64,000 nt of DNA from positions 64,001-128,000 of the forward strand of contig JBBQSO010000001.1 in NCBI GenBank assembly GCA_038213805.1, given 5' to 3'. Position numbers and translations under genes: made by a program. Within the stretch, counting starts at the first letter, position 1, and each line of letters begins with the position of its first letter. Below are positions 32,162 through 54,223 of the stretch, in pieces. Source of the stretch: Planctomycetota bacterium (GTDB lineage Bacteria; Planctomycetota; UBA11346). The notes under the pieces are model-generated. The model saw nothing but the letters and a program-made list of their open reading frames with translations, searched no databases and had not been told where the DNA came from.

Positions 32162-32210
32162 TCATGCCCGAGAACTCGTGTTATCCCCTGCCAACCCCAG
32201 GACCGCTTCC

Positions 32211-37988: not shown

Positions 37989-39731
37989 TCAGTGCGTCGG
38001 CGCCGGCGTCGCCGCGGCCGCGGGCGGCGCACTCGTCGGTGCCGTTGCCGCGGGTACCGTCGGGGCGGTCGTCGTGGCGGGCGGCGGTGCCAGCGCCGCG
38101 CCGACGTCGGCGAAGCTCATGTAGATCGACAGCACCACCAGCACCAGCAGCGCCGCCGCTGGTTTCGTACCGCGCCATGAGGTCATCTCGACATCGCCCG
38201 AGTACGCCTGGACCCAGGGCTCTGCCCGAGGGGCGATCTGCATGATGACGACCATCACGACGCACATCAGCACGAACACCGCGCCCAGGAAGTGGAAGCC
38301 ATTCACGACGTCGGTCAGCGGCACCAGCACGGTCGCGCCGTCCACCACGTGCGGCACCAGCGGCACGAAGTAGCCGGTGGCGATGACCAGGAAGCCGCCG
38401 ATCAGCCCGGTCTTGGCCGCGGCCGCCGGCAGGCGGCGCAGCAGCAGGCCCATCAGCACCACCGAGAAGATCGGGATGAAGTACATGCCGTTCATCTTCT
38501 GCAGGTAGCCGAAGATGCTGGTCTGCCCGGCGAGCATGGGCGCGACCGTCATCGCGACCAGCGCCACCACCAGGGCGAAGACCTTGCCGGCCTTCACAAC
38601 GCGATCCTCGGATGCGTTCTTGTCCCACAGGCCCTTGTAGATGCCCATGCTGAACAGCGTGGCGGTGCTGTTGAGCGCCGAGCCGAACGAGCTCAGCACC
38701 GCGCCCATCATCGCGGCCAGGAAGAACCCGGTGAGCGGGGCCGGCAGCACCTCGCGCACCAGCTTGCCGTAGGCGTGATCGGGCTTCAGGCCGCTGTCGG
38801 CATAGAGGTGGAAGGCGATGATGCCGGGCACCACCAGGTAGAGCGGGCCGAGCAGCTTCAGTGCGCCGGTCAGCAGCACGCCCTTCTGGCCCTCGGCGAG
38901 GTTGCGCGCGGCGAAGGTGCGCTGGATGATCGACTGGTTGGTGCACCAGTAGAAGGTGGTGAGCAGGATGACGCCGGTGAACAGCGTCGGGAATGGCACC
39001 GACTGGGTGGCCGTGCCGAGCGAGTTGAATTTTTCGGGGTGGGCGTGGGTCACGGTGTGCAGACCGGCGAGGATGCCTTCGCCCTTGCCGACCGCCGCCA
39101 GGGCGAAGCCGACGATCATCAGGCCGCCCGAGAGCAGCAGCACGCCATTGTAGGTGTCAGCCACCGCGATGCCGCGCATGCCGCCGAAGACGGCGTAGAT
39201 GGTGCCGACCAGGCCGACCACCCACACCGTCAGCCACAGCGCCGAGCCCGCGTCCTGGATGCCGGTCAGCCCCTGCACGTCGACGATCTCGTTCAGGCCG
39301 GTGGCGCCGGTATAGAGCACGATCGGCAGCAGGATGGCGGTGTAGGCGATCAGGAAGATGAGGTTGCAGATGACCTGCGTGCCGCGGTCGAAGCGCAGCT
39401 CGAGGAATTGCGGCACGGTCGAGATACCGCTGCGCAGGAAGCGCGGCAGGAAGAACAGCGCCATCGCCACCAGCGACAGCACCGAGACCACCTCCCAGGC
39501 CATGACGCTCAGGCCGTCACTGTAGGCGGCGCCGTTGAGTCCGACCAACTGCTCGGTCGAGAGGTTGGTGAGCAGCAGCGAGCCGGCGATGAACACCGCG
39601 CCCAGCGAGCGCCCCGCCAGGAAGTGGCTGGTGGTGGTCGACACCACCGTGCGCCGCACCGTCAGCCAGGTGCCGAGGGCGACCAGGCCGGTGAAGAAGG
39701 CGAACGAGGCGAAGGTGATGAGGGTGTGCAT
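37989..39731 (-). CDS. Solute:sodium symporter (SSS, YidK-like sugar transporter)
   Basis: FLAGRSL, LTNLSTEQLVGLNG, FLELRFD, FYWCTNQSIIQR, many TM helices. Confidence 0.93.
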   Translation of the reverse strand: MHTLITFASFAFFTGLVALGTWLTVRRTVVSTTTSHFLAGRSLGAVFIAGSLLLTNLSTEQLVGLNGAAYSDGLSVMAWEVVSVLSLVAMALFFLPRFLRSGISTVPQFLELRFDRGTQVICNLIFLIAYTAILLPIVLYTGATGLNEIVDVQGLTGIQDAGSALWLTVWVVGLVGTIYAVFGGMRGIAVADTYNGVLLLSGGLMIVGFALAAVGKGEGILAGLHTVTHAHPEKFNSLGTATQSVPFPTLFTGVILLTTFYWCTNQSIIQRTFAARNLAEGQKGVLLTGALKLLGPLYLVVPGIIAFHLYADSGLKPDHAYGKLVREVLPAPLTGFFLAAMMGAVLSSFGSALNSTATLFSMGIYKGLWDKNASEDRVVKAGKVFALVVALVAMTVAPMLAGQTSIFGYLQKMNGMYFIPIFSVVLMGLLLRRLPAAAAKTGLIGGFLVIATGYFVPLVPHVVDGATVLVPLTDVVNGFHFLGAVFVLMCVVMVVIMQIAPRAEPWVQAYSGDVEMTSWRGTKPAAALLVLVVLSIYMSFADVGAALAPPPATTTAPTVPAATAPTSAPPAAAATPAPTH

Positions 39732-39977: not shown

Positions 39978-40002
39978 GTAACGATCGCGGGGGTACGGTA
40001 GA
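39978..40002 (+). promoter_or_regulatory. Candidate ECF promoter GTAAC-N15-GTAGA (autoregulatory)
   Basis: 9 nt separate it from ATG 40012; recurs at 44034 and 47387. Confidence 0.65.
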
Positions 40003-40011
40003 CTGTCCTGC

Positions 40012-40548
40012 ATGGGTACGGATCTCTCGGCCGCCGATCACGAGCGCTTCACCCGGCATTGGACCCTGGCCAGTCCGATGGTGGCGGACTACATCAGCGC
40101 CCTGGTGCCGAATTTCCATGAGGCCGAGGACCTGCTGCAGAACGTCGCCATCGTCGTCCTGCGCAAATTCGACCAGTACGACCAGGCGCTGCCCTTCGCC
40201 TTCTGGGCGATGGGCATCGCCCGCTATGAGGTATTGAGCAAGCGGCGCGAATTCTCGCGGCGGCGGGTGCTCTTCACTCCAGATCTCGCCGATCAGGCGG
40301 CCGAGCTCCAGCAGGAGATGAGCGCCGAGCACGAAGCCCGTCAGCGCGCCCTGCGGGACTGCCTGCGCGCGGTCGGTGAGCGCGCGACCACGGTGCTGCG
40401 CATGCGCTATGAAGAGGCACTCGAGCCGCGCGACATCGCCGAGCGCCTCGGCATGTCGTCAGGCGCCATCCGCGTGATGCTCAGTCGGGTGCGCTGCGTC
40501 CTCCAGGAGTGCATCCAGGCGAAGATCGCCGTGGCGGACCACCGCTGA
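40012..40548 (+). CDS. ECF sigma-70 factor (Planctomycete/Verrucomicrobia type)
   Basis: EAEDLLQNV, FAFWAMGIARYEV, LRMRY..IAERLGMSSGAIRVMLSRVR..LQECI. Confidence 0.93.
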   Translation: MGTDLSAADHERFTRHWTLASPMVADYISALVPNFHEAEDLLQNVAIVVLRKFDQYDQALPFAFWAMGIARYEVLSKRREFSRRRVLFTPDLADQAAELQQEMSAEHEARQRALRDCLRAVGERATTVLRMRYEEALEPRDIAERLGMSSGAIRVMLSRVRCVLQECIQAKIAVADHR

Positions 40549-42398
40549 TGACCGTGCCGCTCCCCCTCATCGATGCCTTCCTGGATGACCACCTGGACGA
40601 TGACCAGACCGTCGCGCTGCAGACCTGGTTGGCAGCCGATCGCGAGCACCTGCGGGCCTTCCTGCGCATCACGTCCGTGCACCGGGCGCTGCGCCGCGAG
40701 TTCACCAGCGCCCAGGCGCACGTACGCTTCTCAGCGCAGGCACCGAGCGCCACCACCCGTCGGTTGCGCATCGCGGCGCGGCGAGGCGGATCGCGGCGCC
40801 CGGTCGGGATGAACCCGTGGTGGCTGCGGGGCGCGGGCATCGCCGCCGGCCTGCTGCTGGCGATCGGCCTGGTCATGGGCGGTCACCGCGCCGGGGATGA
40901 CGCGGTCCAGATCGCCGCCGGTTCCGCCGTTATCGAGCGGCCGACGGGCCCGGTGCCGGCGCATGCGGGCGATGTGGTGCAGCGTGCCGATGCGATCGTT
41001 GCTGCGCAGGGCCCCGTCACCCTGCGCTTCGCCGATGGCACCACGGTGCGACTCGATGCGGATGCCCGGATCGTGCTGACGTCCGCAGGAAGCGCGGACC
41101 AAGGCAAGCGCCTGGAACTGGGCATGGGTCGGCTTTCCGCGAGCGTCGCCAAGCAGCCCAGCGGTCGTCCGCTGACCATCACCACCGCGACCGCGACCGC
41201 GGTGGTGGTCGGCACCGCATTCAGCCTGAGCAGCTCCGCGACTGCGACCCGCCTGGACGTCGAACACGGTCGCGTGCGGCTTGAGCGCCAAGTCGATGCC
41301 GCAACGGTCGAGGTCGGCGCCGGCGAATACGCGGTGGCGGACCCGGGCAGCGCATTGGTAGTGCGCAAGCAGGGCACCCTGCCGGGCGATGCCCCCCTGC
41401 ATGTCGGTGGCGCCCGGCACAACCAGCTCATTGGGCCGGATGGGAAGCGCTTCGTGTTGAAGGGCGCACAGGTCGGCCTCACCCTCTTCTATGCCCAGCT
41501 CGGCTCGCCGTGGGAATACCGGCTGCTCGCGGACCGGGCCGTGTTCGAGCGCGCCTTCAGCGGGCGCCTCGCACAGCTCGCGGCGATGAAGGCCAACGGC
41601 ATCAACACCGTGCGCATCTTCGTCGGCGGGGCGGTGGCCCACGACCCCAACAACGGGTATGCGACTCCAGAGCAGGGCTACGGCGGGTTCGCCGGCTATG
41701 TCCAGCGCCTGGTCACCTATGCCGACGATGCCCGCAACCAGGGGTTCCACGTCATCTTCTGCTACAATGGCGATGATGGGTGGTCGCAGGATACGAACTG
41801 GCCTGCGTATCGCAGACTGTTCAGCGCACTGGTGCCGGCGCTCGCGACCAACGGCAACGTGCTGTTCGAACTCGTCCATGAACCGGACATCGAAGATCGC
41901 GAATGGAGCCGGTGCAGCGTCCGCGCCATCGACCTTTTCCGTTCACTCGGATATCGGGGCCCACTCGTGGTCGACCTCGATCATCGCTGCAACTGGTGGT
42001 ATGAGCCCATCGTCGACGAAGTTTCCCGGCATGATCAGCAACTGGTCTTCAGCCTGCACTTCGCGAAATGGGTGGGCTGGGCGCACACCGAGGAAATGCT
42101 GCGCAACGGCGCCCATCGACCGGTGATCCTCGGACAGGTGACACCCAATGTGGGCAATGACCTTGGCGAGCCGGACGCCATCGCGGCCGTGGTCGCCATG
42201 CGTGCGCTGGTCACCCAGGAAATCGCGATCGGCGCCGTGGCGGCGGAATGGAATGCACGCGATGGCCAGCCTCCGACGCCCGGCACGGGCATGACAGACG
42301 ACGATGGCGCCCTCGTGCCGAACTCATGGGGCGTTGGATATCGTGATGGATTCAGTGGTCGCCTGCCTGATTGGCTCCCTGTCGCAACGCCTCCGTGA
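40548..42398 (+). CDS. Anti-sigma factor: FecR domain fused to a GH5-like TIM barrel
   Basis: TGATG overlap with the sigma gene; LIDAFLDD N-domain; TM helix; FecR FADGTTV..AVVVGTAF; GH5-like FVLKG, GINTVRI, VLFELVHEP, FSLHF, PVILGQ. Confidence 0.85.
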   Translation: MTVPLPLIDAFLDDHLDDDQTVALQTWLAADREHLRAFLRITSVHRALRREFTSAQAHVRFSAQAPSATTRRLRIAARRGGSRRPVGMNPWWLRGAGIAAGLLLAIGLVMGGHRAGDDAVQIAAGSAVIERPTGPVPAHAGDVVQRADAIVAAQGPVTLRFADGTTVRLDADARIVLTSAGSADQGKRLELGMGRLSASVAKQPSGRPLTITTATATAVVVGTAFSLSSSATATRLDVEHGRVRLERQVDAATVEVGAGEYAVADPGSALVVRKQGTLPGDAPLHVGGARHNQLIGPDGKRFVLKGAQVGLTLFYAQLGSPWEYRLLADRAVFERAFSGRLAQLAAMKANGINTVRIFVGGAVAHDPNNGYATPEQGYGGFAGYVQRLVTYADDARNQGFHVIFCYNGDDGWSQDTNWPAYRRLFSALVPALATNGNVLFELVHEPDIEDREWSRCSVRAIDLFRSLGYRGPLVVDLDHRCNWWYEPIVDEVSRHDQQLVFSLHFAKWVGWAHTEEMLRNGAHRPVILGQVTPNVGNDLGEPDAIAAVVAMRALVTQEIAIGAVAAEWNARDGQPPTPGTGMTDDDGALVPNSWGVGYRDGFSGRLPDWLPVATPP

Positions 42399-42409
42399 AG
42401 GATTCCCAC

Positions 42410-43909
42410 ATGCACCTGCGCACGACCACCACTGTCCTGGTTCTAGCGGCGCTGTCCTGCAGCGCGCTCCATGGGGCCGTCCATGAGGTCGGTCCGACGA
42501 CTCCGCTGGTGTTGTCGCTGGCCGACGTCGCCGGGGGCACCGATGTACGCAACAATGCCAAACACAATCCGGGCGGCGGCTACCTTAGTGTCTACGACGG
42601 CATCAAGGAATTCGGCTACCCGTCCACCCACGGCAACCAGCTTGGCAACACCGCGCTGGTCAATGACCATGTCTACTGGGATAGCAGCCCGGGCGGCCTC
42701 GACTTCACCCACACGCCACCTCCCGACGCGGGCTGCGGCAGTGCCTTGTGGTGGCCCATCCCCGGGGAATGGACAGCCTACCAGTTCGCGGTGACCAGCC
42801 CGGGAACCTATTCCGTGCTCTGCCGCTTCTCGTCATCGTGGGGACCGGCCAAGCCGGCCACGGCGGTGCTCACCATCGATGGCGTCGCCAGCGCGCCCGT
42901 GCCGCTGACTCCGGACGATCCGAAGCTGTGGTCCGATACGCACTACCAGGTGGGCGGGTGGTGGGGACACACCATGGTCAGCGGCACCTTTCCGGTCGCC
43001 TGGTCGCTGGGCACCGGCGCCCACGTGCTGCAGGTGCGCATCGACAGCTTCCCGGACAAGCCCACGGACCACGGCAATCTCTGGATCCATTATTTCAAGA
43101 TCACGTCGAGCAAGACCGCCGGCAGGGCGCCGGCCGTGGTGCTCAAACCTGTCGTGCCCCGCCAGCTGGCCGCGGCGAACGCGGCATTCAAGACGGCAGA
43201 GGAGTGCGAGCAGAAGGGGCGCCTGGGCCAAGCCATCGCCGCCTACGAGAAGGCGGCAGGCGGAGCGGTAGCAGGCAGCGATCTGAACGAGCGCGCCACG
43301 ACCAGGGCCAAGGCGCTGCGTGAGGCCGGCGAGCAGAAGCTCGCCGCTGCACGCGCCCTCGCACCCGAGGCGGCAGCGCCCGTCCTGGCGCGGATCGCGA
43401 GCGACTATGCCGGTAGCGACGTGGGCGACTCCGCACGTCCCTCGTCACCGGCGCAGACCCAGGCACCGCCCCAGAAGGCCCCCGCGGACACCGGCACGAC
43501 CGGGTGGACTGCACCCGACAAGCAGCAGGCGCTCTCCGCGCTCCGCACCATGATCCTGGACACCGCGGGGCGGATGCCGATCACAGCGACCATCGCGCTG
43601 TTCGGGAAGCCGCAGGCGGTGGTCGTCACCAAATGCGACAAGCAGGGTCTGGATCTCAGACTCACCGGCTCCAGCTCGGAAATCACCCTGCAATGGCAAC
43701 AGCTCGGCAACGAGGACCTGGGGCGGCTGGGGCAGGCCTGCATCCTCGGTCGCTCGGACCAGGCCCTTGCCGTTGGGGAGTGGTGCATCGCCTGCGGGCT
43801 CGAAACCCTGGCGAAAGCCACGCTGAATCGCGCGGCCGAACTCGATTCGCGGTTGGCGCCGGCAGTGGCCGAACGGCTACAGGCGCTCCACGCCAAGTCC
43901 GCGCCCTGA
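42410..43909 (+). CDS. Secreted protein: CBM6/35-like N-domain, TPR-like helices and uncharacterised C-terminal domain
   Basis: Signal peptide; GEWTAYQFAVTSPGTYSV, GAHVLQV, NLWIHYFKI; N-domain is paralogous to that of the next gene. Confidence 0.72.
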   Translation: MHLRTTTTVLVLAALSCSALHGAVHEVGPTTPLVLSLADVAGGTDVRNNAKHNPGGGYLSVYDGIKEFGYPSTHGNQLGNTALVNDHVYWDSSPGGLDFTHTPPPDAGCGSALWWPIPGEWTAYQFAVTSPGTYSVLCRFSSSWGPAKPATAVLTIDGVASAPVPLTPDDPKLWSDTHYQVGGWWGHTMVSGTFPVAWSLGTGAHVLQVRIDSFPDKPTDHGNLWIHYFKITSSKTAGRAPAVVLKPVVPRQLAAANAAFKTAEECEQKGRLGQAIAAYEKAAGGAVAGSDLNERATTRAKALREAGEQKLAAARALAPEAAAPVLARIASDYAGSDVGDSARPSSPAQTQAPPQKAPADTGTTGWTAPDKQQALSALRTMILDTAGRMPITATIALFGKPQAVVVTKCDKQGLDLRLTGSSSEITLQWQQLGNEDLGRLGQACILGRSDQALAVGEWCIACGLETLAKATLNRAAELDSRLAPAVAERLQALHAKSAP

Positions 43910-44033
43910 TGGCCTGACGGCGGGTCGCCATCCGCGCAGATCCCAACCACCTGGAGGAAGCGATCTGCCGCGTCCTGCAGGGATCGCCGTTTTGCGACCC
44001 GGTGGGACGGCGACAGAGTGCGGTGGAAACTCC

Positions 44034-44058
44034 GTAACGCGCAGCGTCGGCCGGTAGA
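44034..44058 (+). promoter_or_regulatory. Candidate ECF promoter GTAAC-N15-GTAGA
   Basis: GTAACG-N12-CGGTAGA, identical in boxes and spacing to 39978-40002. Confidence 0.65.
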
Positions 44059-44135
44059 TCTCGGGAGAATGAACGTCGTGGGCGTACGCACCGTCCGCCG
44101 CCGCGCTCTCTCATCGTGACCATCGGAGGAATCCC

Positions 44136-46259
44136 ATGAGCATCGCCCATCCCATCGCAGCTGGTCCGCTTCGGACGATGGCGTCGCGCGTTCGCCGCCG
44201 CTCCGCCTTGATCGCCATGCTCATCGCGCTGTTGATGGCCGGGGCGCAACCTGCCCAGACCGCGACCTTCGACGTGAGCCCAACCAGCCCGGCGATCATC
44301 CCGTTCTCCAGCGTCATCGGCGGATCGGATGCGGCGAACAACGCGAAGAACAACGCGAATGGCGGCTATTTCAGCGAATTTGACAATGTCAGTCAGTTCA
44401 ACTACCCGGCCGGTCATGGCAACCAGCTCCAGAACACGGCGATGATCAATGACAGCACCAACTATTTCGACAACGTGACCTGGCAAGGCGGACAGCCGGC
44501 CGGCTTGTCACTGTCGGGCGTTCCCGCCCCGGACGCGGGCTGCGGCGATGCGGCCTGGTGGCCGGCTCCCGGCGATTGGGTCTCGTACCAATTGAATGTC
44601 ACCACCGCCGGCACGTACACCGTCCTCACCCGTTTCTCGACGGCGTGGGGTCCGACCGGCACCGTGACCTACCATATGACAATCGATGGGGTCAGCAGCG
44701 GGCCAGTCACCATGCACCCGGACGACAACGCGTATTGGACGCCTGGAGCAGGCGGATTCCAGCGTCCGATCGATGGCTGGTGGGGACACAATTATGTCCC
44801 GGGCACCATGCCAACCGGCTGGAGTCTGGCCGTAGGACCGCACGTGCTCAAGGTCTTCATCGACAACTGGCCCGGCACAGCGCCTGGGCCCAGCTCCTCG
44901 GGCCCGGGCGACATCTGGCTGCATTACTTCAAGGTCCTGGCTGGCGGCACGCCGGTGTCCGGGCCGGTGCCCGCACCGACCTTCTCATTCTCGCCACTTC
45001 TGACCGCCACCGCCAATGGCTTGATGGCGACTGGTCCCGTGACGGTCACGATTGAGGACACCGATGCCACCGCGGTCATCCATTACACCACCGATGGCAG
45101 CACGCCGATGGCATCCTCGCCCACGTATACTGCGCCCTTCATCATCAGTGCCCTGGGCGCCGCGACCATCAAGGCACTGGCGATCGACGGTACCGACAGC
45201 GCGGTGGCGACCACGACGTTCACCATCGCTGCGCCCCCGACGGTGGCGACCGCGGCCAACGCCGCGCCGAACCCGGTGACGGGCACCACCACGGTGCTGA
45301 GCGCGCTGGGCGCAACCACCGGCGCGGGCGGCGAGCCGACGCTGACCTACACCTGGTCGACGACCGGGTCGACACCGGCGGCGGTGCGCTTCAGCGCGAA
45401 CGGCAGCAACGCCGCGAAATCGGTCACCGCCACCTTCGCCGGCGCCGGCACCTACAATTTCCAGGTCGCGATCGCCAACCCCTTCGGCTTATCGGTGACG
45501 AGCAGCGTCAGCGTGGTGGTGGACCGGACCGTGACGGGCGTGGCGGTGGTGCCGGGCACGGCGTGGATCTCGGCCGGCTCGAGCTTCACCTTCACCGCCT
45601 CGGCAGTCGACCAGTTCGGGGCCGTCATCTCCGGGACTCCGACCGTCACCTGGTCGGCGACGGGCGGCAGCATCACGGCGGGCGGAGCCTACACCGCCGG
45701 AAATGCCGCGGGCACCTTCTCGGTCACGGCGGCTTCGTCGACGGGCAGCGGGTCGGCGACGGTGGTGGTGACTGCCGGCTTTGCGGTCAGCATGACCTTC
45801 CAGCCCGCGCAGACGCCGCCCTTCGGCAACTACCTCGTCGACAACGGTGCGGTCTTCGGCGATCGCGGCAACGGCCTGAGTTACGGCTGGGACCAGGACC
45901 TCAGCACCTGGGCGCGCGAACGCCAAGGCAAGGGTGGCACGGCACCCGATGCCGGCCACGACCGCCTGATCTACGTGCAGCGCGCGGGCAATGCGGTCTT
46001 CCGCATCACCGTCCCGAACGGCACCTACAACGTCCACATCATCAGTGGTGACGCCGCCTACTCCGCCAGCGTCTTCAAGGTGTCCGCCCAGGGCGTGCTG
46101 GTGGTGGATGGGACGCCGACGCCGGGCAACCGCTGGATCGAAGGCACCCAGACCGTGACCGTCACCAACGGCACGATCGCGGTGACCAGCGCCAGTGGGG
46201 CGCAGAACAACAAGATCTGCCAGCTCGACATCGCCGTCGTCCCCGCAGCCGTCAACTAG
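44136..46259 (+). CDS. Secreted multidomain protein: CBM-like N-domain, chitobiase/FN3-associated domain, PKD-like, Ig-like and C-terminal galactose-binding-like domains
   Basis: GGAGG RBS; signal peptide; IHYTTDGSTP; PKD-like repeat shared with the M36 gene; FQPA...YLVDNG.VFGDRGNGLSYGW..VPNGTYNV. Confidence 0.8.
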   Translation: MSIAHPIAAGPLRTMASRVRRRSALIAMLIALLMAGAQPAQTATFDVSPTSPAIIPFSSVIGGSDAANNAKNNANGGYFSEFDNVSQFNYPAGHGNQLQNTAMINDSTNYFDNVTWQGGQPAGLSLSGVPAPDAGCGDAAWWPAPGDWVSYQLNVTTAGTYTVLTRFSTAWGPTGTVTYHMTIDGVSSGPVTMHPDDNAYWTPGAGGFQRPIDGWWGHNYVPGTMPTGWSLAVGPHVLKVFIDNWPGTAPGPSSSGPGDIWLHYFKVLAGGTPVSGPVPAPTFSFSPLLTATANGLMATGPVTVTIEDTDATAVIHYTTDGSTPMASSPTYTAPFIISALGAATIKALAIDGTDSAVATTTFTIAAPPTVATAANAAPNPVTGTTTVLSALGATTGAGGEPTLTYTWSTTGSTPAAVRFSANGSNAAKSVTATFAGAGTYNFQVAIANPFGLSVTSSVSVVVDRTVTGVAVVPGTAWISAGSSFTFTASAVDQFGAVISGTPTVTWSATGGSITAGGAYTAGNAAGTFSVTAASSTGSGSATVVVTAGFAVSMTFQPAQTPPFGNYLVDNGAVFGDRGNGLSYGWDQDLSTWARERQGKGGTAPDAGHDRLIYVQRAGNAVFRITVPNGTYNVHIISGDAAYSASVFKVSAQGVLVVDGTPTPGNRWIEGTQTVTVTNGTIAVTSASGAQNNKICQLDIAVVPAAVN

Positions 46260-46274
46260 AACCCGCGAGGCACC

Positions 46275-46598
46275 ATGCGCCTGATCCCCTTCCTCATGAT
46301 CTCCTTCGCCCTGGTAGGCTGCGGTAGCGGAGGGAATTTCGCCTTCGCTCCTGGCACCGTCATCAGCCGCACCAGGGTGACCCACTTCTGGCCCAATGGG
46401 CAGATGAAGGACACCGGCTTCATCGCCACCGACAGCCAGGGCAACACCCACCAGGTCGACCAGTGGCAGTTGTGGTTCGAGAACGGCCAGCCGCAGTGGC
46501 AAGGCACCTATACCAGCACCGGCGCGGTGGATGGCAGCCAGCCCTGGTTCGAGTGGAACAGCAACGGTTCGGTGCGTGACACCTGGATCGACCGCTGA
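46275..46598 (+). CDS. Small lipoprotein with MORN/YwqK-like beta-hairpin repeats
   Basis: Lipobox LVGC; FWPNGQMK, WFENGQPQWQGTY, WNSNGS. Confidence 0.78.
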   Translation: MRLIPFLMISFALVGCGSGGNFAFAPGTVISRTRVTHFWPNGQMKDTGFIATDSQGNTHQVDQWQLWFENGQPQWQGTYTSTGAVDGSQPWFEWNSNGSVRDTWIDR

Positions 46599-46667
46599 TC
46601 GCGTCCGGGCCTCTGCTCGTCGACACCACACATGTTCCCGTCCGATTGCGGGCGGGGAAAGAGTTCC

Positions 46668-47342
46668 ATGCGCCTGCGCATCCTGGCATCAGCCCACCTC
46701 ATCCTCGGTAGCGCTCTCGCCTGCCACGCCGCCGATGATTTCTACCGCCGCGCCAGCGTGCCGGACCTCTCCCACGAGTCATCATCGTGCGTCGACGATC
46801 TGCGAATCGGGTATTGGTTCATGCCGCTGGCCACCAACATCGACACCAGGCTGAACGGGGCGACGAGCTACCAGAAGCACGGTCACCTGCAATCAGGCAG
46901 CCGGACCTCGCTGCAGTGGGCGCTGCCGTTCACCGACCTGCGGAATGACGGGGATGGGCTGCTCGCCCTCGAACTCTCCAACATCCGATATCATCAGGAT
47001 CAGAGCACCACCGATCCGCTGATCGATCTGAACGCCTATGCGTTGACCCTGCATGTTGATCTGGCCTGGCCGATCGCCGGCGGTGGCCACATGGAGCTCG
47101 GGCCATTCCTGGGCTATGGCGTGTCTTCGGTAAGCGCACAGCACTGGAATGGCTTGTTCTGCGAGTTCGGCGGGCGCCTGGGCGCCTACTGGACCTTCGC
47201 CCGGCACCTGCAGGTCGGCCTCGATCTGCGCTACCTGGGCACGTATGCGCGCCAGGATTTCGCGGTCGGCGCCGCCAGTGAAGAGGTCGTGATCAAAACC
47301 AAGGGCGGATCCGCCGGCGTGCAGTTCGGCTACCGGTTCTGA
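46668..47342 (+). CDS. Outer-membrane beta-barrel protein (about 8 strands)
   Basis: Signal peptide, alternating amphipathic strands (ELGPFLGYG, GGRLGAYW, VGLDLRY), C-terminal GVQFGYRF signature. Confidence 0.8.
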   Translation: MRLRILASAHLILGSALACHAADDFYRRASVPDLSHESSSCVDDLRIGYWFMPLATNIDTRLNGATSYQKHGHLQSGSRTSLQWALPFTDLRNDGDGLLALELSNIRYHQDQSTTDPLIDLNAYALTLHVDLAWPIAGGGHMELGPFLGYGVSSVSAQHWNGLFCEFGGRLGAYWTFARHLQVGLDLRYLGTYARQDFAVGAASEEVVIKTKGGSAGVQFGYRF

Positions 47343-47386
47343 GCGCGGCGCAGCCGGGCGCTGCTCCACCCTCCGAAAGTTTTCCG

Positions 47387-47411
47387 GTAACACCTCGCCA
47401 AACCAGGAAGA
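47387..47411 (+). promoter_or_regulatory. Candidate ECF promoter GTAAC-N15-GAAGA
   Basis: Same spacing and same 9-nt gap to an ATG (47421) as the copy upstream of the sigma gene. Confidence 0.55.
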
Positions 47412-47420
47412 CCCACAGGC

Positions 47421-49631
47421 ATGGAGCCAGCACTCGGTTCGGCACATGTCAGGAACAACGCGCAGACAGGCGATAGAGCATGCGTGCCGATGCCGGTGCG
47501 CTGTGGAGCAATGCCGTGTGCGGGCAAAACGCCCGGAACCCCTGGGATCACCCGCTGCGGCTTCACGCTTTTTGAAGTCGCCATCTCGCTCGGCCTCGCC
47601 GCCTTCGGGGTGGTCAGCGTCATGATGCTCTTCCCGCAGGGCATCAAGGCCCAGCAGATGGCCCGCTCCCGCTTCTTCGCCGCCACCAAGGCGCTGGAGA
47701 TGGTCGACAGTTACAACTCCTTCAACAACGCCACCGCGAACATCGACAACGAGGCGCCCGATCCCTGGGACGTCCCGACCGGTCGCTGCAGCTCTGCCAA
47801 CGACCTCGAGCGCCGCCTCGCCTCGCCGCGTTTCGGCATCGCGCCCCTGCCAACGGAGATCGCCAAGCGCCTCGATTCCGATGGCGACGAGATCCGGCAG
47901 ATCCTCGGCGACGGCGGTTTGCTGTATTATTCCCAACCGCAGGCGGCCGCCGGCTTCATGGAAACCGGGACGCCCGCGGCGCCACCGGTCGAGGCCCAGC
48001 GCCTGGTCTTCGCCGTGGTCGGCTATGCCCAGGACAACGCCATCCACGTGTTCCCCTGGAAGGCATGGCCGTACTACACGCCCTATCCGTCGCCGCCGAT
48101 GCACGGCTACCACCAGTACGAGGCCGATCCGGCGGTCCTGCAGTCGGTGCCGGCGGATGCCCTGCATTACTCCGCGGGCAGCTTCACGGTGGATCCTTTC
48201 CAGAATTCCCGGGACTGGGACACCGATCGTATGCTTATCGAGGACGCCAACGACCCGGACATGCGCAAGGTCTTCACCTGCACCAACCAGGCGGCCTCCG
48301 CAGGCGCCCCCGCCGGTTCCGTCGAGTTCGGCTACAAGCAGCACTTCAGGGAGCGGAGCCTGGACTCGGCGCTGCGCTACTGCGCCGCCGCCCTGTGGTA
48401 TTGCGAGCGCAAGTTTCCCGGCGCGGCGGCCTCATACTTCCTCACCAGCGCACCCTTGACGACCTTCCCGACCTCGGTCCCGCAGGACCGCAAGGGGGAC
48501 CTGGTGAACTGCCTGCGTTTCCTTTCGCACGCCACCACCTGCCTGACCGCCTTCGCCAGCAAGGGCACGCTGGATGCGGGCGTGATGGTTCCGCAACTGA
48601 CCGTGGATTCCCTGACCTCGCCGGCGGCCCTGGTGACGACGAGCGTCATCATCAACCAGCACGAGAGCTGCCTCGACCTGGCCATGCTGTTCGCCGCGAG
48701 CTACCCCTACGACTGGGCCGCTCCGCGACCGGAAAACCGCATGATCATGATGGATCATCCACTGCTGGAATACGATCTCTTCCCCACCAGCTCCGCGCCC
48801 ATGCTGAGCGGCAGGATCTGGCCCGGAAATCCGCTGATCCCGGCGAACCAGTGGCGTCCCATCGCCGCCCAGCCGATCGTGCACATCGGGCGCAGCTACC
48901 AGTTCCCCAGCGAAGACATCCCCAGCGCCAATCCGGTGTGGTCCTGGTGGGGCTCCACCACGCCTCCGACGCCACCCTATGCGGCCGGCCAGCCCAGCAC
49001 GTTCTGGGGTGACCCCAGCCATTTCACCCTGACCAACACCTTCGAGCCCAGCGAGCGCTGCCGGCAGCTGGTCTTCTGGGCGGTCGATTGGATGCAATAC
49101 GAGGACTGCGAGACCGCCCCGAGCGCACCCATCGACGCGAGCCGCTACACCCGCTCAGCGCCGAAGGCGAGGGCCGCAGCGGGCGGCCCGGTGGACACGG
49201 TCGATAAGCTGTTCGATGCGCCGGCGTTCATGGAGTGGGCCCAGCAGAGCACCAACCGCAATCCGGAGAAGACCATGATCTTCTCGGTCCCGACCGCCGG
49301 GAAGCCGGATGGGTACACCGGCGCGGATGTGGGACTGCCCAAGACCTTCTCCGATGGCTTCGCCTGGACCCTGCGCTTCGGAAACGACGGCGTCCCGACG
49401 CCGCCGACGTGGAATCCCTGGGCCTTCGGGCACAAGCGCGACCAGGGCATGACGCCCCTTGCGCCGAGCGACCCGGATCCGCGCAAGCTCTTCCTGGGGC
49501 GCTTCGGCGCCGATCGCAACTTCAATGGGCGGCTTGATCGTGGCACGCTCCCCGTCTCCGTCCGCCTCCGCGCCCAGACCGTGGCGCGCTTCAACTACTA
49601 CGATCTGCGCGTCCCCGCCATGATCCGCTGA
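47421..49631 (+). CDS. Large prepilin-type protein (PilV/GspI-like N-terminus)
   Basis: RCG|FTLFEVAISLGLAAFGVVSVMMLFPQG class III signal with Glu5; ~660-aa head domain. Start may be 47421 or a downstream ATG such as 47511. Confidence 0.82.
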   Translation: MEPALGSAHVRNNAQTGDRACVPMPVRCGAMPCAGKTPGTPGITRCGFTLFEVAISLGLAAFGVVSVMMLFPQGIKAQQMARSRFFAATKALEMVDSYNSFNNATANIDNEAPDPWDVPTGRCSSANDLERRLASPRFGIAPLPTEIAKRLDSDGDEIRQILGDGGLLYYSQPQAAAGFMETGTPAAPPVEAQRLVFAVVGYAQDNAIHVFPWKAWPYYTPYPSPPMHGYHQYEADPAVLQSVPADALHYSAGSFTVDPFQNSRDWDTDRMLIEDANDPDMRKVFTCTNQAASAGAPAGSVEFGYKQHFRERSLDSALRYCAAALWYCERKFPGAAASYFLTSAPLTTFPTSVPQDRKGDLVNCLRFLSHATTCLTAFASKGTLDAGVMVPQLTVDSLTSPAALVTTSVIINQHESCLDLAMLFAASYPYDWAAPRPENRMIMMDHPLLEYDLFPTSSAPMLSGRIWPGNPLIPANQWRPIAAQPIVHIGRSYQFPSEDIPSANPVWSWWGSTTPPTPPYAAGQPSTFWGDPSHFTLTNTFEPSERCRQLVFWAVDWMQYEDCETAPSAPIDASRYTRSAPKARAAAGGPVDTVDKLFDAPAFMEWAQQSTNRNPEKTMIFSVPTAGKPDGYTGADVGLPKTFSDGFAWTLRFGNDGVPTPPTWNPWAFGHKRDQGMTPLAPSDPDPRKLFLGRFGADRNFNGRLDRGTLPVSVRLRAQTVARFNYYDLRVPAMIR

Positions 49632-49639: not shown

Positions 49640-50902
49640 ATGCGCATCCTGCGAACCAGTGGCTTCACCCTCATCGAGATGCTGATCGCGATCGCGCTGG
49701 GCGTGGTCATCATCACCACCTGCGCCGCCGGCTTCCGCGTGGCCAGCCAATCGATCAGCGTCGCCAACCGCCTGGCGCTCGAAAACACTTTGATGCGCTC
49801 CGGGTACTTCGCCGCCGTCGAGGAGGCAGACTACTGGGAGTCGTTCGATGATCCGAACGCCACGCCCGCGCCTGCGACGTCGCTGCGGGGCAGCGCCTCG
49901 CTGACCTACCATGGCGTCGCCACCGCGCGCGGCATGGCCTTCACGCCCCTCACCCAGATGGGCTTCACCTGCGCAGCGCCCACGAACAGCGAGGCCGACC
50001 GCGGTTGGGACAGCGCCTACCAGTGGCCAGCCAGCGATCCGCGCGGCTGGTACCATGGCCAGATCCCGGAATTCATGCACAATATCGACGGAAAATTCGG
50101 CTTCTACGAGGTGTTCACCCACCTCAGCAGTGCGCCGAACCTCTCCAGCACCGCCTTGGTCCAGAGCGCCAACCTGGTGGCATATGGGGTGGCGAGCCCA
50201 CTGCACACCTGGCTGCCCAACCAGCTTGAGGGGATGAAGAACGCGCTCGGATATTACGGCCTCTACGACTACTTCCCGGCCAACACCTTCTTCGGCTACT
50301 ACGGCCACGGCGATTGGGGGGACCAGTCCCTGTCCCATGAATGGTCGAACCCGGACAGCCCCAATACCGCCTCGCCAAACGGCTCGCTGTTCAAACTGAG
50401 CGGCTTCTCGCAGGGGTACGACTACTCGACGGTCAACGGCCGGAACAACAACACCAACAGCGTCTCCTTCCCCATCGTCCCGGCCTCGGGCTTCACCGAG
50501 TTCAGGACCGACACGCTGGCGGTCCAGGACCTGGTCAGCCGCAACCACAGCTCGTGGGTGACCAACACCTACCAGGCCGCAGGCACCAGTGCCGGCGTCA
50601 GCGGCTTCCTCGGCAATGCGCTCGTGCGCACGCCGCTCATGACGTCCCGGCCCGCCTACTGGCCCGAGCTGCGCGTCCAGGTCGCGCGCTACGCGAATCA
50701 GTCCCGCTTCGCCACCCTGTGCCGGATCAGCTGGCGCAGTCCGCTGACCGGTGCCACGGCCGAGGCCGCCTTCACCGTGCTGAGCACGACCTTGCGCGGG
50801 GCCCGGCAGCAACGCCGCCAGGGCGGCGGTTGGGCGACCTGGACGAATTCCATCAGCGATCCCATCCTGCGGACCACCGATGCCACGCTCGACAGCCCCT
50901 GA
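49640..50902 (+). CDS. Prepilin-type protein (PilW/GspJ-like N-terminus)
   Basis: TSG|FTLIEMLIAIALGVVII. Confidence 0.88.
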   Translation: MRILRTSGFTLIEMLIAIALGVVIITTCAAGFRVASQSISVANRLALENTLMRSGYFAAVEEADYWESFDDPNATPAPATSLRGSASLTYHGVATARGMAFTPLTQMGFTCAAPTNSEADRGWDSAYQWPASDPRGWYHGQIPEFMHNIDGKFGFYEVFTHLSSAPNLSSTALVQSANLVAYGVASPLHTWLPNQLEGMKNALGYYGLYDYFPANTFFGYYGHGDWGDQSLSHEWSNPDSPNTASPNGSLFKLSGFSQGYDYSTVNGRNNNTNSVSFPIVPASGFTEFRTDTLAVQDLVSRNHSSWVTNTYQAAGTSAGVSGFLGNALVRTPLMTSRPAYWPELRVQVARYANQSRFATLCRISWRSPLTGATAEAAFTVLSTTLRGARQQRRQGGGWATWTNSISDPILRTTDATLDSP

Positions 50903-50909
50903 GGTGCCC

Positions 50910-51893
50910 ATGCCGAGCGCCTCCCGATCTGCTCGCGGCCCGCGCTGCGGAACGGTGCTCATCCTGGTCGCGGGGATCTGCGCGCTGCTGGCATCGCTGT
51001 CGCTCGCGTTCATGATCACCATGCGTTCCGCCGCGGAGGAGAGCCGGGCGCTGGTCGCTGATGCGCAGGCGCGGATCATGCTCTATGCCGCCTGCAACTA
51101 CATCCAGGAGGCGTCACGACTGGGATATGACAACGGCCTTGACCATGGCGAGGCGCACGGCTGGATCGATGTCCGTGACGGCAGTGAAGGCCCGAAGATC
51201 AACCTTGGCGATCCGCCGCGGTTTCCCCGCAATGTGCCGCAGCGCTTCCCCATGTACGTCTGGCAGCAGACCCGCTACGCGATCAGGCCGACCACCGCCT
51301 ACAATCCCATCAGCACGGACGAAGCCGATGACAGCCGTTTCGGACGTCCGTACCTCGCCAATCCGGATCCGCAGCCGGTCGCCACGGAATTCGCCAGTGC
51401 GGACACCTCGGGACGGGTCAAGGACCACCTCCATGGCGATGCGCTGATCGCGCCCGACCGGCAGCCGGTCGGCACGCCGCGGTGGAACAGCGTCAACCTC
51501 TCGTGGTTCCGCATCGTGCGCATCGACAAGGCCCGTTTCCTGGTGACCTGCGGCGCCGGTTCGACCCAGGGCTTCCGATCCTACGCGGAGGCAGGCATCC
51601 AACTTGGAGCGGATTCCGCGAACCAGTTGTTCGGAGACGCGGAGATGTTCGCGCAGTTCCAGGACCAGGAGGTCCGCGCCTGGTACCTGGTCGAATGGAG
51701 CCCGGCGGTGATCGGCGGCATGAACAACACCACCGATGGCGGCATTATCGGCGCCGAGCATTTCATCATGCTGCCGGAGAACGCCAGCCACCAGTACTAC
51801 CCCGGTGGAGTGGCGAGCCAGTCCAATTCACGCAACATGGTCGGAACCATCCGCTGGATCCAGCGGCTGACGACGGAGCCCGCGGCCTGGTGA
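50910..51893 (+). CDS. PilX/GspK-like pseudopilin
   Basis: RCG|TVLILVAGICALLASLSLAF (no Glu5), followed by QARIMLYAA helix; GAGG RBS. Confidence 0.75.
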   Translation: MPSASRSARGPRCGTVLILVAGICALLASLSLAFMITMRSAAEESRALVADAQARIMLYAACNYIQEASRLGYDNGLDHGEAHGWIDVRDGSEGPKINLGDPPRFPRNVPQRFPMYVWQQTRYAIRPTTAYNPISTDEADDSRFGRPYLANPDPQPVATEFASADTSGRVKDHLHGDALIAPDRQPVGTPRWNSVNLSWFRIVRIDKARFLVTCGAGSTQGFRSYAEAGIQLGADSANQLFGDAEMFAQFQDQEVRAWYLVEWSPAVIGGMNNTTDGGIIGAEHFIMLPENASHQYYPGGVASQSNSRNMVGTIRWIQRLTTEPAAW

Positions 51894-51928: not shown

Positions 51929-54223
51929 TCACCGCGGTGGCAGGCCGATGGTGATGGCGCTGAAATCGACGGGATTGAAATGGGTCAGCAGTCCGACCTT
52001 GCCCTCCACTGGTTCGCCGAGGTCGGCAGCAGTGATGATGGCCGCCCCATTGATCGCGACGGTCACCTTTCGGCCGATCCGGGTCACCGTGACGGTGCTG
52101 GTCTTCCACTTGCCGGTGCCGACGCAGGCAGCCTGCGCCACCTGCGTCCGCATGCCCTTGGCGACGCGCGCCAACGCGACGCTGCCCAGGCCATCGATCG
52201 TCAGGGCATCGTAGTCCTGCGCATCGGTGAATCCGAAAACCAGACCGGCGACGTTGTCGAAGCGCGGCATCATGGACACCGTGAATGCGAGGTCCTTCAA
52301 AGTCAGGGCGTCGTAGACGCAGAGGTCGAGGCCCTCTGCCGACGTATGGTTGTATTTTCCTTCTGCGCACGACCAGGTGCCACCGAGGGGCGTCCAGTCC
52401 TTGGCGACGCCAGCGCTGAAGTCCGCCACATAGGACTTGGCTGCGGTGGTTCGGCTGATGGCGATACCCATCAGCACCGGTGCGCCGCGCAGGGCCTTGG
52501 CGACGATGTCGAGCTGCTGGTTGCGCACCTCGACGGCGATCGGGCCGCACTTCGCCCACCCACCAAGCGGCAGGTCACCGAGCCCGGAGATCACCACCCC
52601 GCCGCACGTGAGATCGAACACGCGCGCATGGGCGCGCTGGTTCTCGGCGGTCCAGAAGGTGACCTCGTAACCCCCATCAGGGAGCTTGAAGCTCAGCGCC
52701 AAGAGGTCGCTGCGCGCTGTGGAGATGCCGGAAGAGAGCATCGCCCGGGTGTCCGCGTCGGGCGGAGGCGGGATCAGGGCCAGCGACACCGAGACCCTGC
52801 GTGCATTCGTGAGGGTCATGCCATCCGCTTCGGCCAGCTTCTGGGATTGCCAGCGCCCACCCTCGATGATCACCGCCTCGCCGCCGAGATCGATGCCCTT
52901 GAGGAAGGCCGGGGCAGTGGCGGCGACGGGCGGTGCAGCCGGCGCAGGCAACTGCTCGCCCAGTGTGACCGGCACAGTGACGTCCGGGGGCGTGAGTGTG
53001 GCTGCGATCACGGGCGCAGCGGGCGCAGCCCCATCGGCCGGAGGTACAGGTGGCGTCGCGACCGCTTCCGGAACGGCGAGGGCCGCGCTTCGCGATGCGT
53101 GCAGAGCGGTTTCCGACGCCTCGCGGGGCGCGGGAAGCGCCGGCGGCTGCGCCACGATGGGCGCCGCAGGCGACGGTTGCGCGGGCAAAGGTCGATCTGC
53201 ACGCGGCGCGCCCGGAGCCGCATGCGCACTCGTGGGCTGGGTCGAGTCGTGACGGCCTGGATTGCCCGGCGGTTTGAGCATCACCGCCACGATCACCGCG
53301 ATCACGGCACCAACCGCCACGGTTGCACCCAGCACCGGCGATGGCAGGCGGCGGCGGAGACGTTGGGATGGAATCCTCGCGCTGCGGCGGCTGTCCACGG
53401 CAGCGGAGCGATGACTGTCCGCGGACGTGGCGCGGAGTGCCGGCGCTGCGGCGGCTGCCAGGATCTCGTCAGCGAAGGCCGTCATCGTCGCCATCGACGG
53501 TTCCCCGAGGGCCTCGCCGAGCAGCAGGTCGATCCGCACCTGGCGCTCGAATCTGGCCGCAAAGGGCAGGTCGTCGCGTACGCGCTGGGCGAGCAGGCTC
53601 CGCGAATCCGGGTCGATCACGCCCGCGAGGAAGTCCTCGATGAGGGCGGTCATCACACTCTCCTGACGCTGCACGCTCGCCCCTGGCGACGGCGGTTGGG
53701 GCTGGTCGATGGCGGCGCGGGCCACCACCAGGCCCGCATCGACCTGCGCCCGGTCCCAACCGCGCTGCGTCGCCAGCGCCGCATTGCCCAGGCCGCCCTG
53801 GTACCTGCCGAGGATCAGGTCGCGTTGTTCCGGATCGAGTCGGGCGATCCCCACCTGGATCCGGCCGGCGCCGCCCGGCGCATCCACACCGCTCTGCAAC
53901 GCTTCCCGGCCGGTCTGCGCCAGCAGGTAACCGAGCGGGTCCTGGATGGCGATCGCGGTGGCCGCGCCCGCGTCGAGATGCCGCGCCAGGGCGGTCGCGG
54001 CCAGGACCTGCAATCCGGCACGTTGGCCGATCGCAGTTTCCGCCTGGGGTCGACTGATCCACTGCGCCCACAGGTCCCGTTCGAGCGCGTCGATCTGCGC
54101 CCGCGTCGCGGCGAAACCGGCCAGGAATGTCCGCAAGGATTGGCGATGATCCGCCAGCACCTGGACGACGTGGTCACGGTCGAGCGCGAGGGCGGCAGAA
54201 GGCTGACGGCGAACCGGCGACAT
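51929..54223 (-). CDS. Membrane-anchored fusion: degenerate ECF sigma, anti-sigma-like domain, TM helix, Pro/Ala stalk, malectin-like and DUF1080-like domains
   Basis: HRQSLRTFL (sigma2-like); LDPEQRDLILGRY (sigma4-like); LIEDFLAGVID; TM VAVGAVIAVIVAVML; FLKGIDLGG..YEVTFWTAEN...RVFDL; AGLVFG..GKVGL. Start uncertain. Confidence 0.75.
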   Translation of the reverse strand: MSPVRRQPSAALALDRDHVVQVLADHRQSLRTFLAGFAATRAQIDALERDLWAQWISRPQAETAIGQRAGLQVLAATALARHLDAGAATAIAIQDPLGYLLAQTGREALQSGVDAPGGAGRIQVGIARLDPEQRDLILGRYQGGLGNAALATQRGWDRAQVDAGLVVARAAIDQPQPPSPGASVQRQESVMTALIEDFLAGVIDPDSRSLLAQRVRDDLPFAARFERQVRIDLLLGEALGEPSMATMTAFADEILAAAAAPALRATSADSHRSAAVDSRRSARIPSQRLRRRLPSPVLGATVAVGAVIAVIVAVMLKPPGNPGRHDSTQPTSAHAAPGAPRADRPLPAQPSPAAPIVAQPPALPAPREASETALHASRSAALAVPEAVATPPVPPADGAAPAAPVIAATLTPPDVTVPVTLGEQLPAPAAPPVAATAPAFLKGIDLGGEAVIIEGGRWQSQKLAEADGMTLTNARRVSVSLALIPPPPDADTRAMLSSGISTARSDLLALSFKLPDGGYEVTFWTAENQRAHARVFDLTCGGVVISGLGDLPLGGWAKCGPIAVEVRNQQLDIVAKALRGAPVLMGIAISRTTAAKSYVADFSAGVAKDWTPLGGTWSCAEGKYNHTSAEGLDLCVYDALTLKDLAFTVSMMPRFDNVAGLVFGFTDAQDYDALTIDGLGSVALARVAKGMRTQVAQAACVGTGKWKTSTVTVTRIGRKVTVAINGAAIITAADLGEPVEGKVGLLTHFNPVDFSAITIGLPPR

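Follow-up and report, generated by a model that had tools for sequence, protein, structure and literature searches.

The 64,000-nucleotide stretch of a Planctomycetota genome analyzed here (the window; positions 64,001 to 128,000 of contig JBBQSO010000001.1) encodes at position 40012 an extracytoplasmic function (ECF) sigma factor of the TIGR02989 subfamily, and three copies of one bipartite motif, GTAAC-N15-G(T/A)AGA, precede the sigma gene and two gene clusters downstream of it. The motif is very probably the promoter of this sigma factor, and the three sites together probably define its local regulon, in which one set of three pilin genes (a pilin trio) would have been captured. The regulon would comprise the sigma factor, its anti-sigma factor, and a protein with a carbohydrate-binding module (CBM); a second CBM protein, a lipoprotein, and a β-barrel protein; and the pilin trio. 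Judged singly from the sequence, site 1 is almost certainly a promoter of this sigma factor, site 2 is only marginally less secure, and site 3 is likely used directly for the pilin genes.

39978..40003, + strand: promoter site 1, GTAACG (–35), GTA, GAC (–10 core); predicted to be autoregulatory; no Shine-Dalgarno sequence
44034..44059, + strand: promoter site 2, GTAACG...GTAGAT; exact SigD-type GTAAC-N18-GAT
47387..47412, + strand: promoter site 3, GTAACA...GAAGAC, 9 nt 5′ of the pilin ATG; weakest of the three

Position and frequency of the three sites

All three copies lie where the first-pass annotation of this DNA had placed them (39978-40002, 44034-44058, and 47387-47411, + strand). They are intergenic as claimed, with the start of a symporter gene at 39731 before site 1 and stop codons at 43909 and 47342 before sites 2 and 3, and the proposed extension of sites 1 and 2 to GTAACG-N12-CGGTAGA is present. 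Sites 1 and 3 are the two that had been described as lying 9 nt before an ATG, which at site 1 is the distance between GTAGA and the start of the sigma gene. Site 2 stands 77 nt 5′ of the ATG of a 707-aa gene and 10 nt 5′ of the ATG of a 16-codon open reading frame (ORF) that the annotation omitted. Under full matrices trained on homologue self-sites, the motif copies found before homologous sigma genes, site 1 ranks 2-8 in the genome and site 2 ranks 1-7.

The three sites are the only motif matches in the window, and 0 of 100 shuffles reached three, a test that proves little because it is circular, the motif having been drawn from these very sites. Across the source assembly (5.5 Mb, 180 contigs), GTAAC-N15-GWAGA has five matches, the two outside the window lying antisense inside genes, and GTAAC-Nk-GNAGA occurs nine times at k = 15 compared with 1-8 times at 16 other spacings. 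The genome-wide scan that the first-pass annotation had proposed thus gave counts near background and no enrichment; near gene starts the motif is at 6 of 3699 crude gene calls, compared with 0-3 at other spacings. In ten relatives the exact pattern was no commoner than a reversed control, and genome-wide enrichment was dropped as a proof of the motif. A viral scan for site 3 gave no match. Because the genome-wide counts are weak, the case rests on position and on conservation in other genomes.

Conservation of the motif with the sigma factor

In what follows, relatives' genomes are labelled G, homologous loci L, and contigs of the source assembly C. GTAAC-N15-GNAGA lies immediately 5′ of the sigma gene in 14 of the 17 loci that a survey of 41 genomes yielded. 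Two scans of the collection gave 160 homologue loci, 150 of them distinct and 145 with at least 100 nt upstream. The motif is present at spacer 15 in 30 of these 145, compared with 0-1 at each of ten other spacers, and it follows identity to the query, occurring in 26/33 loci at 45% identity or more and in 3/24, 1/63, and 0/25 of the successive further identity classes. A blind motif search of 32 loci, with the near relative left out, ranked the same pair first (25/32). The 30 motif-bearing loci hold 15 extra copies in 285 kb, compared with 0-2 at 16 other spacers; judged by eye, 13 of these copies lie 5′ of a gene, mostly one for a secreted protein. All 25 clade sites have G or A after GTAAC.

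The relative G010 keeps all three sites, with 30/30 box positions conserved compared with 34/45 in the spacers and 395/506 in other intergenic DNA (Fisher p = 0.001). G005 and G001 also retain a second site 5′ of a CBM gene. The homologues at 45% identity or more, the blind search, and the conservation in G010 support the reading of the motif as the sigma factor's autoregulatory promoter; its recurrence before the CBM unit is supported by the rank of site 2 and by the retention of its orthologous position in G010 and G005. The window shows the arrangement that characterizes an autoregulated local ECF regulon: one bipartite motif before the sigma gene and a few nearby operons, conserved with the sigma factor. 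In one homologue (G031:C60, L007), which keeps the promoter motif, an in-frame TGA stands where Trp is conserved, pointing to a recoded genome.

Read-out of the motif

On the sequences compared here, the motif is GTAAC(G/A)-N17-GA(C/T), the window sites reading GTAACG-N17-GAC, GTAACG-N17-GAT, and GTAACA-N17-GAC. The available text of two reports on SigD of Corynebacterium glutamicum (PMC11588781, PMC6338062) gives this sigma factor the helix GAVRVA and the read-out GTAAC(A/G)-N17-18-GAT, to which site 2 conforms exactly and sites 1 and 3, with GAC, conform with one mismatch. Because this read-out aligns with the window sites, GTAGA is placed at approximately –15 to –11, with GA(C/T), 18 nt after GTAAC, as the probable –10 core; the second box of the first-pass annotation keeps its position but is probably not the –10 element itself. 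The closest solved ECF sigma factor carries the helix GMSPGAVRVAQHR.

The listed 50-mer of the SigD promoter PrsdA ends 10 nt after GAT, an end that we took as the transcript start on the convention stated in the available text of PMC6338062. In the window, counting from the –10 core, the A of the ATG is the 9th following base at sites 1 and 3; at site 2 it is the 10th, and the ATG there is that of the 16-codon ORF. Because the ATG falls 9-10 bases past the core, transcripts are predicted to start at or within a base of it at all three sites, which fits the mapped SigD geometry and extends slightly the earlier suggestion of near-leaderless transcripts at two of them. Leaders of homologues range from 6 to 44 nt, so a leaderless start is not a rule of the clade.

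We take Arg154 of the window sigma factor to be the equivalent of RpoE Arg171, the two helices having been aligned by eye. Across the 83 of 145 loci with a called site, Arg at residue 154 goes with C at –31 in 67/71 cases, compared with 3/11 for other residues, and Gln at 158 goes with GTT in 24/27, compared with 2/55; three Lys158 members of the Gln158 clade read GTAAC. RpoE Arg171 sets base –31 according to the available text of PMC7776599. Sister clades show the same arrangement with motifs of their own, for example GTTAC-N16-GGMAATAC (24 loci), and a further subclade promoter reads GTAAT-15-GACAATAC. The 24 loci belong to the clade L056-L110 (Verrucomicrobiota, Planctomycetota), with TGTTAC-N16-GGMAATAC and Gln at helix position 158; some of its genera have cultured members and might serve for experimental tests. 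Extra sites nearby are few in this clade (four, compared with a background of 0-7).

A paralogous sigma factor with a related promoter

A paralogous sigma factor on contig C6 is 46% identical, carries the helix VAVRVALCR, and uses the same –35 box, so cross-talk with it is possible. Four GTAAC-N15-GGAGAG sites belong to this paralogue, two beside its gene, as back-to-back promoters at C6:74971-75079, and two before distant secreted genes. The distant targets are C22:39766 and C134:9855, and possibly C36:45931, a gene that also carries the family pilin motif described below. In a quick tree the window and C6 sigma factors fall in separate clades (Shimodaira-Hasegawa (SH) support 99 and 98). Sites of the window clade read G(T/A/C)AGA(C/T) in 11/11 cases, one of them intragenic, and those of the C6 clade read GGAGA(G/A) in 14/14; site 3 is of the window-clade type and not of the C6-clade type. 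These clade-specific –10 bases suggest that the two sigma factors are insulated from one another.

Other ECF paralogues of the genome have local repeats of their own, GTAAG-15-CGAGT (three copies), GCTAAG-14-CGGAAT, GTAAT-16-GGGAC, TGAAAGG-14-CACATA, GTACAGA-14-CGGAC, and GTCAC-15-CCACA, at approximately C24:53356, 55594, and 57400, C54:14057, C18:11390, C15:45540, C47:9302, and C145:3688. A blind search of the surroundings of 43 ECF genes of the genome for 5+5 pairs that recur locally gave 7-9 loci at spacers 14-18 and 1-7 elsewhere, with no clear peak.

Probable control of the pilin trio

Expression of the pilin trio under this sigma factor, through site 3 or by read-through, appears quite likely. 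The stronger proposal of the first-pass annotation, that the sigma factor directly drives the pilin cassette, is likely given the exact boxes kept in G010 and is not secure given the low matrix rank of site 3 and its conservation in a single relative. In G010 the boxes are unchanged while 6 of 15 spacer bases differ; the start codon behind site 3 is also retained, and the 47-codon leader remains open, at 63% identity. On its boxes alone, site 3 ranks 7th genome-wide. Promoters of the same class occur elsewhere too: 5′ of two near-identical trios in G005, counted as one event, where an in-frame ATG follows after 10 nt, and 5′ of a DUF1559-type prepilin gene in L079. Seven of the 30 motif-bearing loci contain a prepilin. 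Only the window copy among the 11 trios of the genome has a GTAAC site.

At L037, L040, L112, L117, and L074, which are Verrucomicrobiota or metagenome loci, the sigma gene is followed on its own strand by a prepilin-type gene at a distance of 1.9-3 kb. A broader proposal, in which each pilin trio is controlled by a neighboring ECF sigma factor, was rejected, with only 3 of the 11 lying within 10 kb downstream of a TIGR02989-like sigma gene.

A family-wide pilin motif

Homologues of the trio, present in 11 copies in the source genome, were found in 17 of 41 genomes searched, all of one family. A start was found in 50 of 60 listed copies that were fetched, giving 61 upstream regions with the 11 own copies. 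GTCCGG-N17/18-RTC precedes 37 of these 61 (controls 0-5), a count that is not independent because the motif was spotted in that set. In a held-out comparison, a matrix trained on relatives gave 14 own-genome matches of at least 18 bits, nine of which precede prepilin genes, compared with 1/38 at wrong spacings; the nine include three unrelated pilin operons. Nine further, unfetched trios have the strict family pattern upstream, eight of them within 400 nt. The window trio scores ~3 bits for the family motif, compared with 18-23 in six sister copies. In a FastTree tree with long branches, the first pilin of the window trio is placed (SH 85) with copies directly behind other ECF/FecR pairs.

The family motif, TGTCCGG-N16/17-CGTC, is common to other pilin operons and to an orphan membrane gene with an anti-sigma-like N-terminus, preceding 28/28 copies of the latter (controls 3-10). 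The own copy of this gene, at C23:37836 with its site at C23:37854-37881 (L372, L403-L432), has no Pfam or NCBIfam match. A candidate for the sigma factor of the family motif, and a candidate only, is the single-copy ECF at C41:23296-23829 (L371, L373-L402), with the helix NVEKRLYR. The two genes co-occur, with both in 28/48 genomes and neither in 15/48, and a predicted complex of their products scored 0.74, with 0.00 for the best control; this mark was reached by 116/157 solved pairs and 2/215 mismatched pairs. At least 87% of contacts are shared between runs, and the partner predicted local distance difference test (pLDDT) value is at least 83. The prediction supports an anti-sigma-like domain in the C23 protein and does not establish the pairing with C41, because solved sigma/anti-sigma complexes exist and no paralogous sigma factor was among the controls. 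The best family-motif site upstream of any sigma gene of the genome reaches 11.4 bits, and none is strong; ATPase genes of pilus or secretion machines in the genome have no strong site either. The motif stands upstream of 8/27 orthologues of the C41 sigma gene (controls 0-4), none of them in this genus. Four of the 11 own trios, which lack both motifs outright, and a fifth (C3), which has only 12 bits for the family motif, weigh against the proposed wiring.

Trios directly behind an ECF sigma factor and a FecR anti-sigma factor with a PA14-like tail (by eye) were seen at L285, L286, L287, L291, L296, and C72:1233-7530; at L286 and L287 two motifs stand 5′ of the sigma gene, the family motif and GTCATAAA. 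Many own contigs (e.g. C15, C32, C46, C94) carry abundant short repeats GTCCGGAA(G) between genes, which raise the background of the family motif.

Alternative explanations

Several observations weigh against the regulon as proposed. Under full matrices site 3 scores 9.3-10.5 bits and ranks 113-200 in the genome; it is conserved in one relative only, G010, where its conservation taken alone gives p of about 0.01-0.08. The pilin trio is missing from the orthologous G005 locus, where loss in G005 and gain in the window are both possible because the next gene looks broken, and only 2 of the 30 motif-bearing loci have an additional site in the 400 nt 5′ of a prepilin gene. The stretch from 44058 to 47421 showed no terminator-like site, so read-through from site 2 could make site 3 dispensable for trio expression. 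G001 diverges from the window locus after the first CBM gene, and the sigma-CBM module is present in 4/48 genomes of the family, most of them incomplete, all four in one genus. The counts for Arg154/–31 and Gln158/–33 are not phylogenetically independent and, because the window and C6 clades are each monophyletic, their differing –10 bases may reflect drift rather than specificity.

Much of this would fit an unlikely alternative in which sites 1 and 2 are genuine promoters, site 3 has little or no activity, and the trio is a recent neighbor transcribed by read-through from site 2 or from another promoter: the low rank of site 3, the lack of a detected terminator after the barrel gene, and the absence of the trio in G005 all point that way. 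GTAAC at site 3 could then be a leftover, because TTTTCCGGTAAC, which overlaps the site, differs from the family –35 box by a single mismatch, and the family box of L281 reads GTCCGGTAAC. However, TCC precedes GTAAC at non-pilin sites too, GAAGA is the self-site of the G001 orthologue, the exact site is expected a few times per 11 million positions, and G010 keeps the boxes, the 15-nt spacing, and the ATG despite 16/44 changed upstream bases in addition to those in the spacer. It is still less probable that the motif is a shared signal read by several paralogous sigma factors (C1, C6, perhaps C72), with the pilin unit answering to the pool. The identity between the window and C6 sigma factors and the four C6 sites of the form GTAAC-N15-G.AGA are compatible with such a pool, as are TGTAAC-N15-GGACAA 200 nt upstream of the C72 sigma gene, the G005 pilin sites reading GGAGAT, a mix of both clade types, and the overlap of SigD and SigH in C. 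glutamicum described in the available text of PMC6338062. Sites within a locus nevertheless match the type of the resident sigma factor at two positions in every window-clade and C6-clade case, the one exception (L120) lying outside these clades. Finally, the motif could be the operator of another DNA-binding protein, such as the LacI regulator at 33676, or chance in GC-rich DNA, as might be argued from the near-background genome-wide counts and from the two-copy recurrence of arbitrary 5+5 pairs in 1-9 of 43 loci at any spacer. We consider this very improbable: the motif is not palindromic, its spacing and orientation are fixed, it tracks sigma phylogeny and helix residues across Planctomycetota, Verrucomicrobiota, and Kiritimatiellota, and it matches a mapped ECF consensus.

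Genes of the locus

The labels CBM, lipoprotein, barrel, and pilin that the first-pass annotation gave to the genes hold, with a CBM6/35-like fold and profile matches in agreement.

40012..40548, + strand: ECF sigma factor, TIGR02989 subfamily, 178 aa; region 4.2 helix GAIRVMLSR
40548..42398, + strand: FecR-type anti-sigma factor, 616 aa; N-terminal anti-sigma domain, FecR domain, GH5-like outer domain
42410..43909, + strand: secreted protein, 499 aa; N-terminal CBM6/35-like domain, TPR-like C-terminus
44069..44119, + strand: 16-codon upstream ORF; ATG on the predicted start of site 2; stops 16 nt before the next ATG
44136..46259, + strand: secreted protein, 707 aa; CBM6/35-like, CHB_HEX_C/Fn3-associated, PKD-like, and C-terminal beta domains
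46275..46598, + strand: small lipoprotein, 107 aa; lipobox LVGC, weak MORN_2
46668..47342, + strand: outer-membrane beta-barrel protein, ~224 aa; C-terminal Phe; Autotransporter and OMP_b-brl matches, both below cut-off
47421..49631, + strand: large prepilin 1, PilV-like, 736 aa; G/FTLFE cleavage site after a 47-residue leader; weak TIGR02523 and TIGR02598
49640..50902, + strand: large prepilin 2, PilW-like, 420 aa; G/FTLIE; N_methyl and TIGR02532 above cut-off
50880..51893, + strand: prepilin 3, 337 aa; PilX/GspK-like by position and missing Glu5

The sigma factor matches Sigma70_r2 and r4_2 above cut-off, with no region 3 match at E 0.001, and its regions 2 and 4, missing region 3, and length of ~180 aa are those of ECF (group 4) sigma factors. 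Its TIGR02989 score is 139.8 bits, compared with a cut-off of 124.55, and the genome has 52 ECF-like matches, eight of them above that cut-off. The nearest homologues are labelled Planctomycetota, and homologues overall come from the Planctomycetes-Verrucomicrobia-Chlamydiae (PVC) group. The anti-sigma factor matches FecR at E 1.8e-14 and has one hydrophobic segment at about residues 92-112 (read by eye). Its outer domain matches Cellulase (GH5), with no Laminin_G_3 match in domain searches, and retains the acid/base HEP with Gln at the presumed nucleophile. Loss of GH5-like activity is not uniform, because the nucleophile is Glu in G005 and the acid/base Glu is missing in G001.

The CBM6/35-like domains of the 499-aa and 707-aa proteins are 49% identical. 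The alignment-based fold has a pLDDT of 82.7, compared with 36 from the single sequence, and its top structure matches are CBM6 (E 2e-7, template modeling score 0.37-0.44 over a query with a long extra N-terminal part); a match at E 1.3e-6 also assigns it to the CBM6/CBM35 clan. In the model, the domain common to both secreted proteins is of CBM6/35-like fold and is predicted to bind carbohydrate. The 16-codon ORF, equal in length in G010 and not seen at the corresponding site of G005, stops just 5′ of the Shine-Dalgarno sequence of the 707-aa gene. The barrel's sole paralogue in the genome (C24:42459-43214, 38% identity) also follows an ECF/FecR pair. A class III signal with Glu5 is present in pilin genes 1 and 2 and not in gene 3, as in PilV/W/X; on that basis we take prepilin 3, the third gene of a trio without Glu5, to be PilX/GspK-like, and domain library searches gave it no family match.

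Adjoining the sigma unit is a divergent gene for a sodium/solute symporter (37989-39731, – strand; YidK-like, 670 bits), and a gene for a LacI regulator (33676-34698) and a weak GH59-like gene (31956-33659) lie nearby, fitting a sugar context. No GTAAC site in the window faces any of these three. On the other side, an 804-aa protein (51929-54343, – strand) is a fusion in which an anti-sigma-like segment and outer domains are joined to a degenerate sigma domain resembling TIGR02989 (E 0.003); in G005, separate genes for a sigma and an anti-sigma factor occur nearby on the same strand.

Proposed mechanism

In the mechanism that we propose, a glycan would bind the GH5-like outer domain of the anti-sigma factor and free the sigma factor, which would read GTAAC(G/A) through the helix GAIRVM and melt GA(C/T) 18 nt on, with transcripts beginning at or within a base of the ATG at the three sites. 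Positive feedback on the sigma factor's own promoter would amplify the response, which would yield carbohydrate-binding proteins, one pilus-tip set, the lipoprotein, and the barrel. We infer the ligand and the step that releases the sigma factor, as well as transcription and filament assembly; for the signal, a glycan is our modestly favored choice. The trio would normally be under a family-wide sigma factor reading TGTCCGG-N16/17-CGTC and would here have been moved under a local switch, so that the captured pilus-tip set would be made only when the glycan is sensed. A general two-tier scheme of tip swapping, in which the C41 sigma factor and the unlinked C23 anti-sigma factor drive default sets while local glycan-sensing ECF/FecR switches with promoters specific to each paralogue capture single trios, is a speculative and rather doubtful extension. 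If true, the window would hold one such capture, with the exchange of promoters legible from its sequence, and the scheme would match the filament tip to the sensed polysaccharide and give the large prepilin expansions of Planctomycetota a regulatory logic testable gene by gene.

TIGR02989-type sigma factors are among the most expanded regulators of PVC bacteria, and a readable, subclade-specific promoter would make their regulons callable from DNA alone in uncultured lineages. Orthogonality could also be tested with the natural sigma/promoter pairs that these loci provide. The contrast with the family-wide motif turns a vague pilin/glycan neighborhood into a specific claim on which sigma factor switches which pilin set.

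Relation to known systems

We found no account of this promoter class, of the family pilin motif, or of two-tier wiring in the literature searched, a scope that left aside Jogler 2012 and Wiegand 2020, which may describe planctomycete ECF promoters, and the tables and figures of Casas-Pastor. Look-ups in the available supplement text of the ECF classification gave 0 hits each for GTAGA, GGAGA, and GTCCG, and the accessible parts of PMC11685898 and PMC8103513 hold nothing on these promoters. Planctomycetes are mentioned 0 times in the available text of PMC7776599, taken without its datasets.

A three-promoter local ECF regulon is itself a known and ordinary design. Local regulators with at most three promoters make up 47.8% of the ECFs in Todor et al. 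2020, and three promoters near the sigma gene is the commonest ECF arrangement, according to the available text (PMC7776599). As in the local regulators described there, the window sigma factor is predicted to be autoregulated, has three nearby promoters and a patchy distribution, and carries an Arg171-type residue that fits base –31; unlike them, its predicted targets include a pilin trio up to 7 kb away. For ECF46, the published group that this sigma/anti-sigma pair most resembles, the available description (Casas-Pastor et al. 2021, PMC7826278) states that promoter motifs are not conserved and that autoregulation may be lacking. The window system, likened to ECF46 by description only, shares its PVC taxa, its FecR-like one-helix anti-sigma factor at +1, and its carbohydrate-related outer domain and neighbors. 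It differs in having a GH5-like outer domain where Laminin_G_3 is typical, and in that each subclade here has its own conserved promoter (GTAAC-15-GNAGA, GTTAC-16-GGMAATAC, GTAAT-15-GACAATAC). In the sequences compared, promoter conservation is apparent only when subclades are split.

With SigD of C. glutamicum (ECF40), as far as the available text describes it, the window sigma factor shares a similar helix (GAIRVM, compared with GAVRVA), the read-out, and a start ~10 nt after the –10 core. Unlike SigD, it has a FecR-type rather than an RsdA-type anti-sigma factor, belongs to PVC bacteria rather than Actinobacteria, has different targets, and uses sites with G(T/A/C)A just before the –10 core where SigD has CTC. 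The likeness is one of read-out and not of ECF40 membership.

FecI/FecR, the ECF/anti-sigma pairs at polysaccharide loci of Bacteroidetes, and clostridial SigI/RsgI with GH or CBM sensors offer wider comparisons. As in these systems, the window sigma/anti-sigma pair heads genes for secreted glycan-binding proteins; its unit differs in having a small barrel and a pilin trio in place of a TonB-dependent receptor or SusC/D. The window prepilins are much larger than PilV/PilW/PilX, come in 11 paralogous sets per genome, and have no adjacent machine genes. What they share with the PilV/PilW/PilX (GspI/J/K) tip-priming complex and with the Verru_Chthon cassette (TIGR02598, weak) is the V-W-X order, with Glu5 in the first two proteins only.

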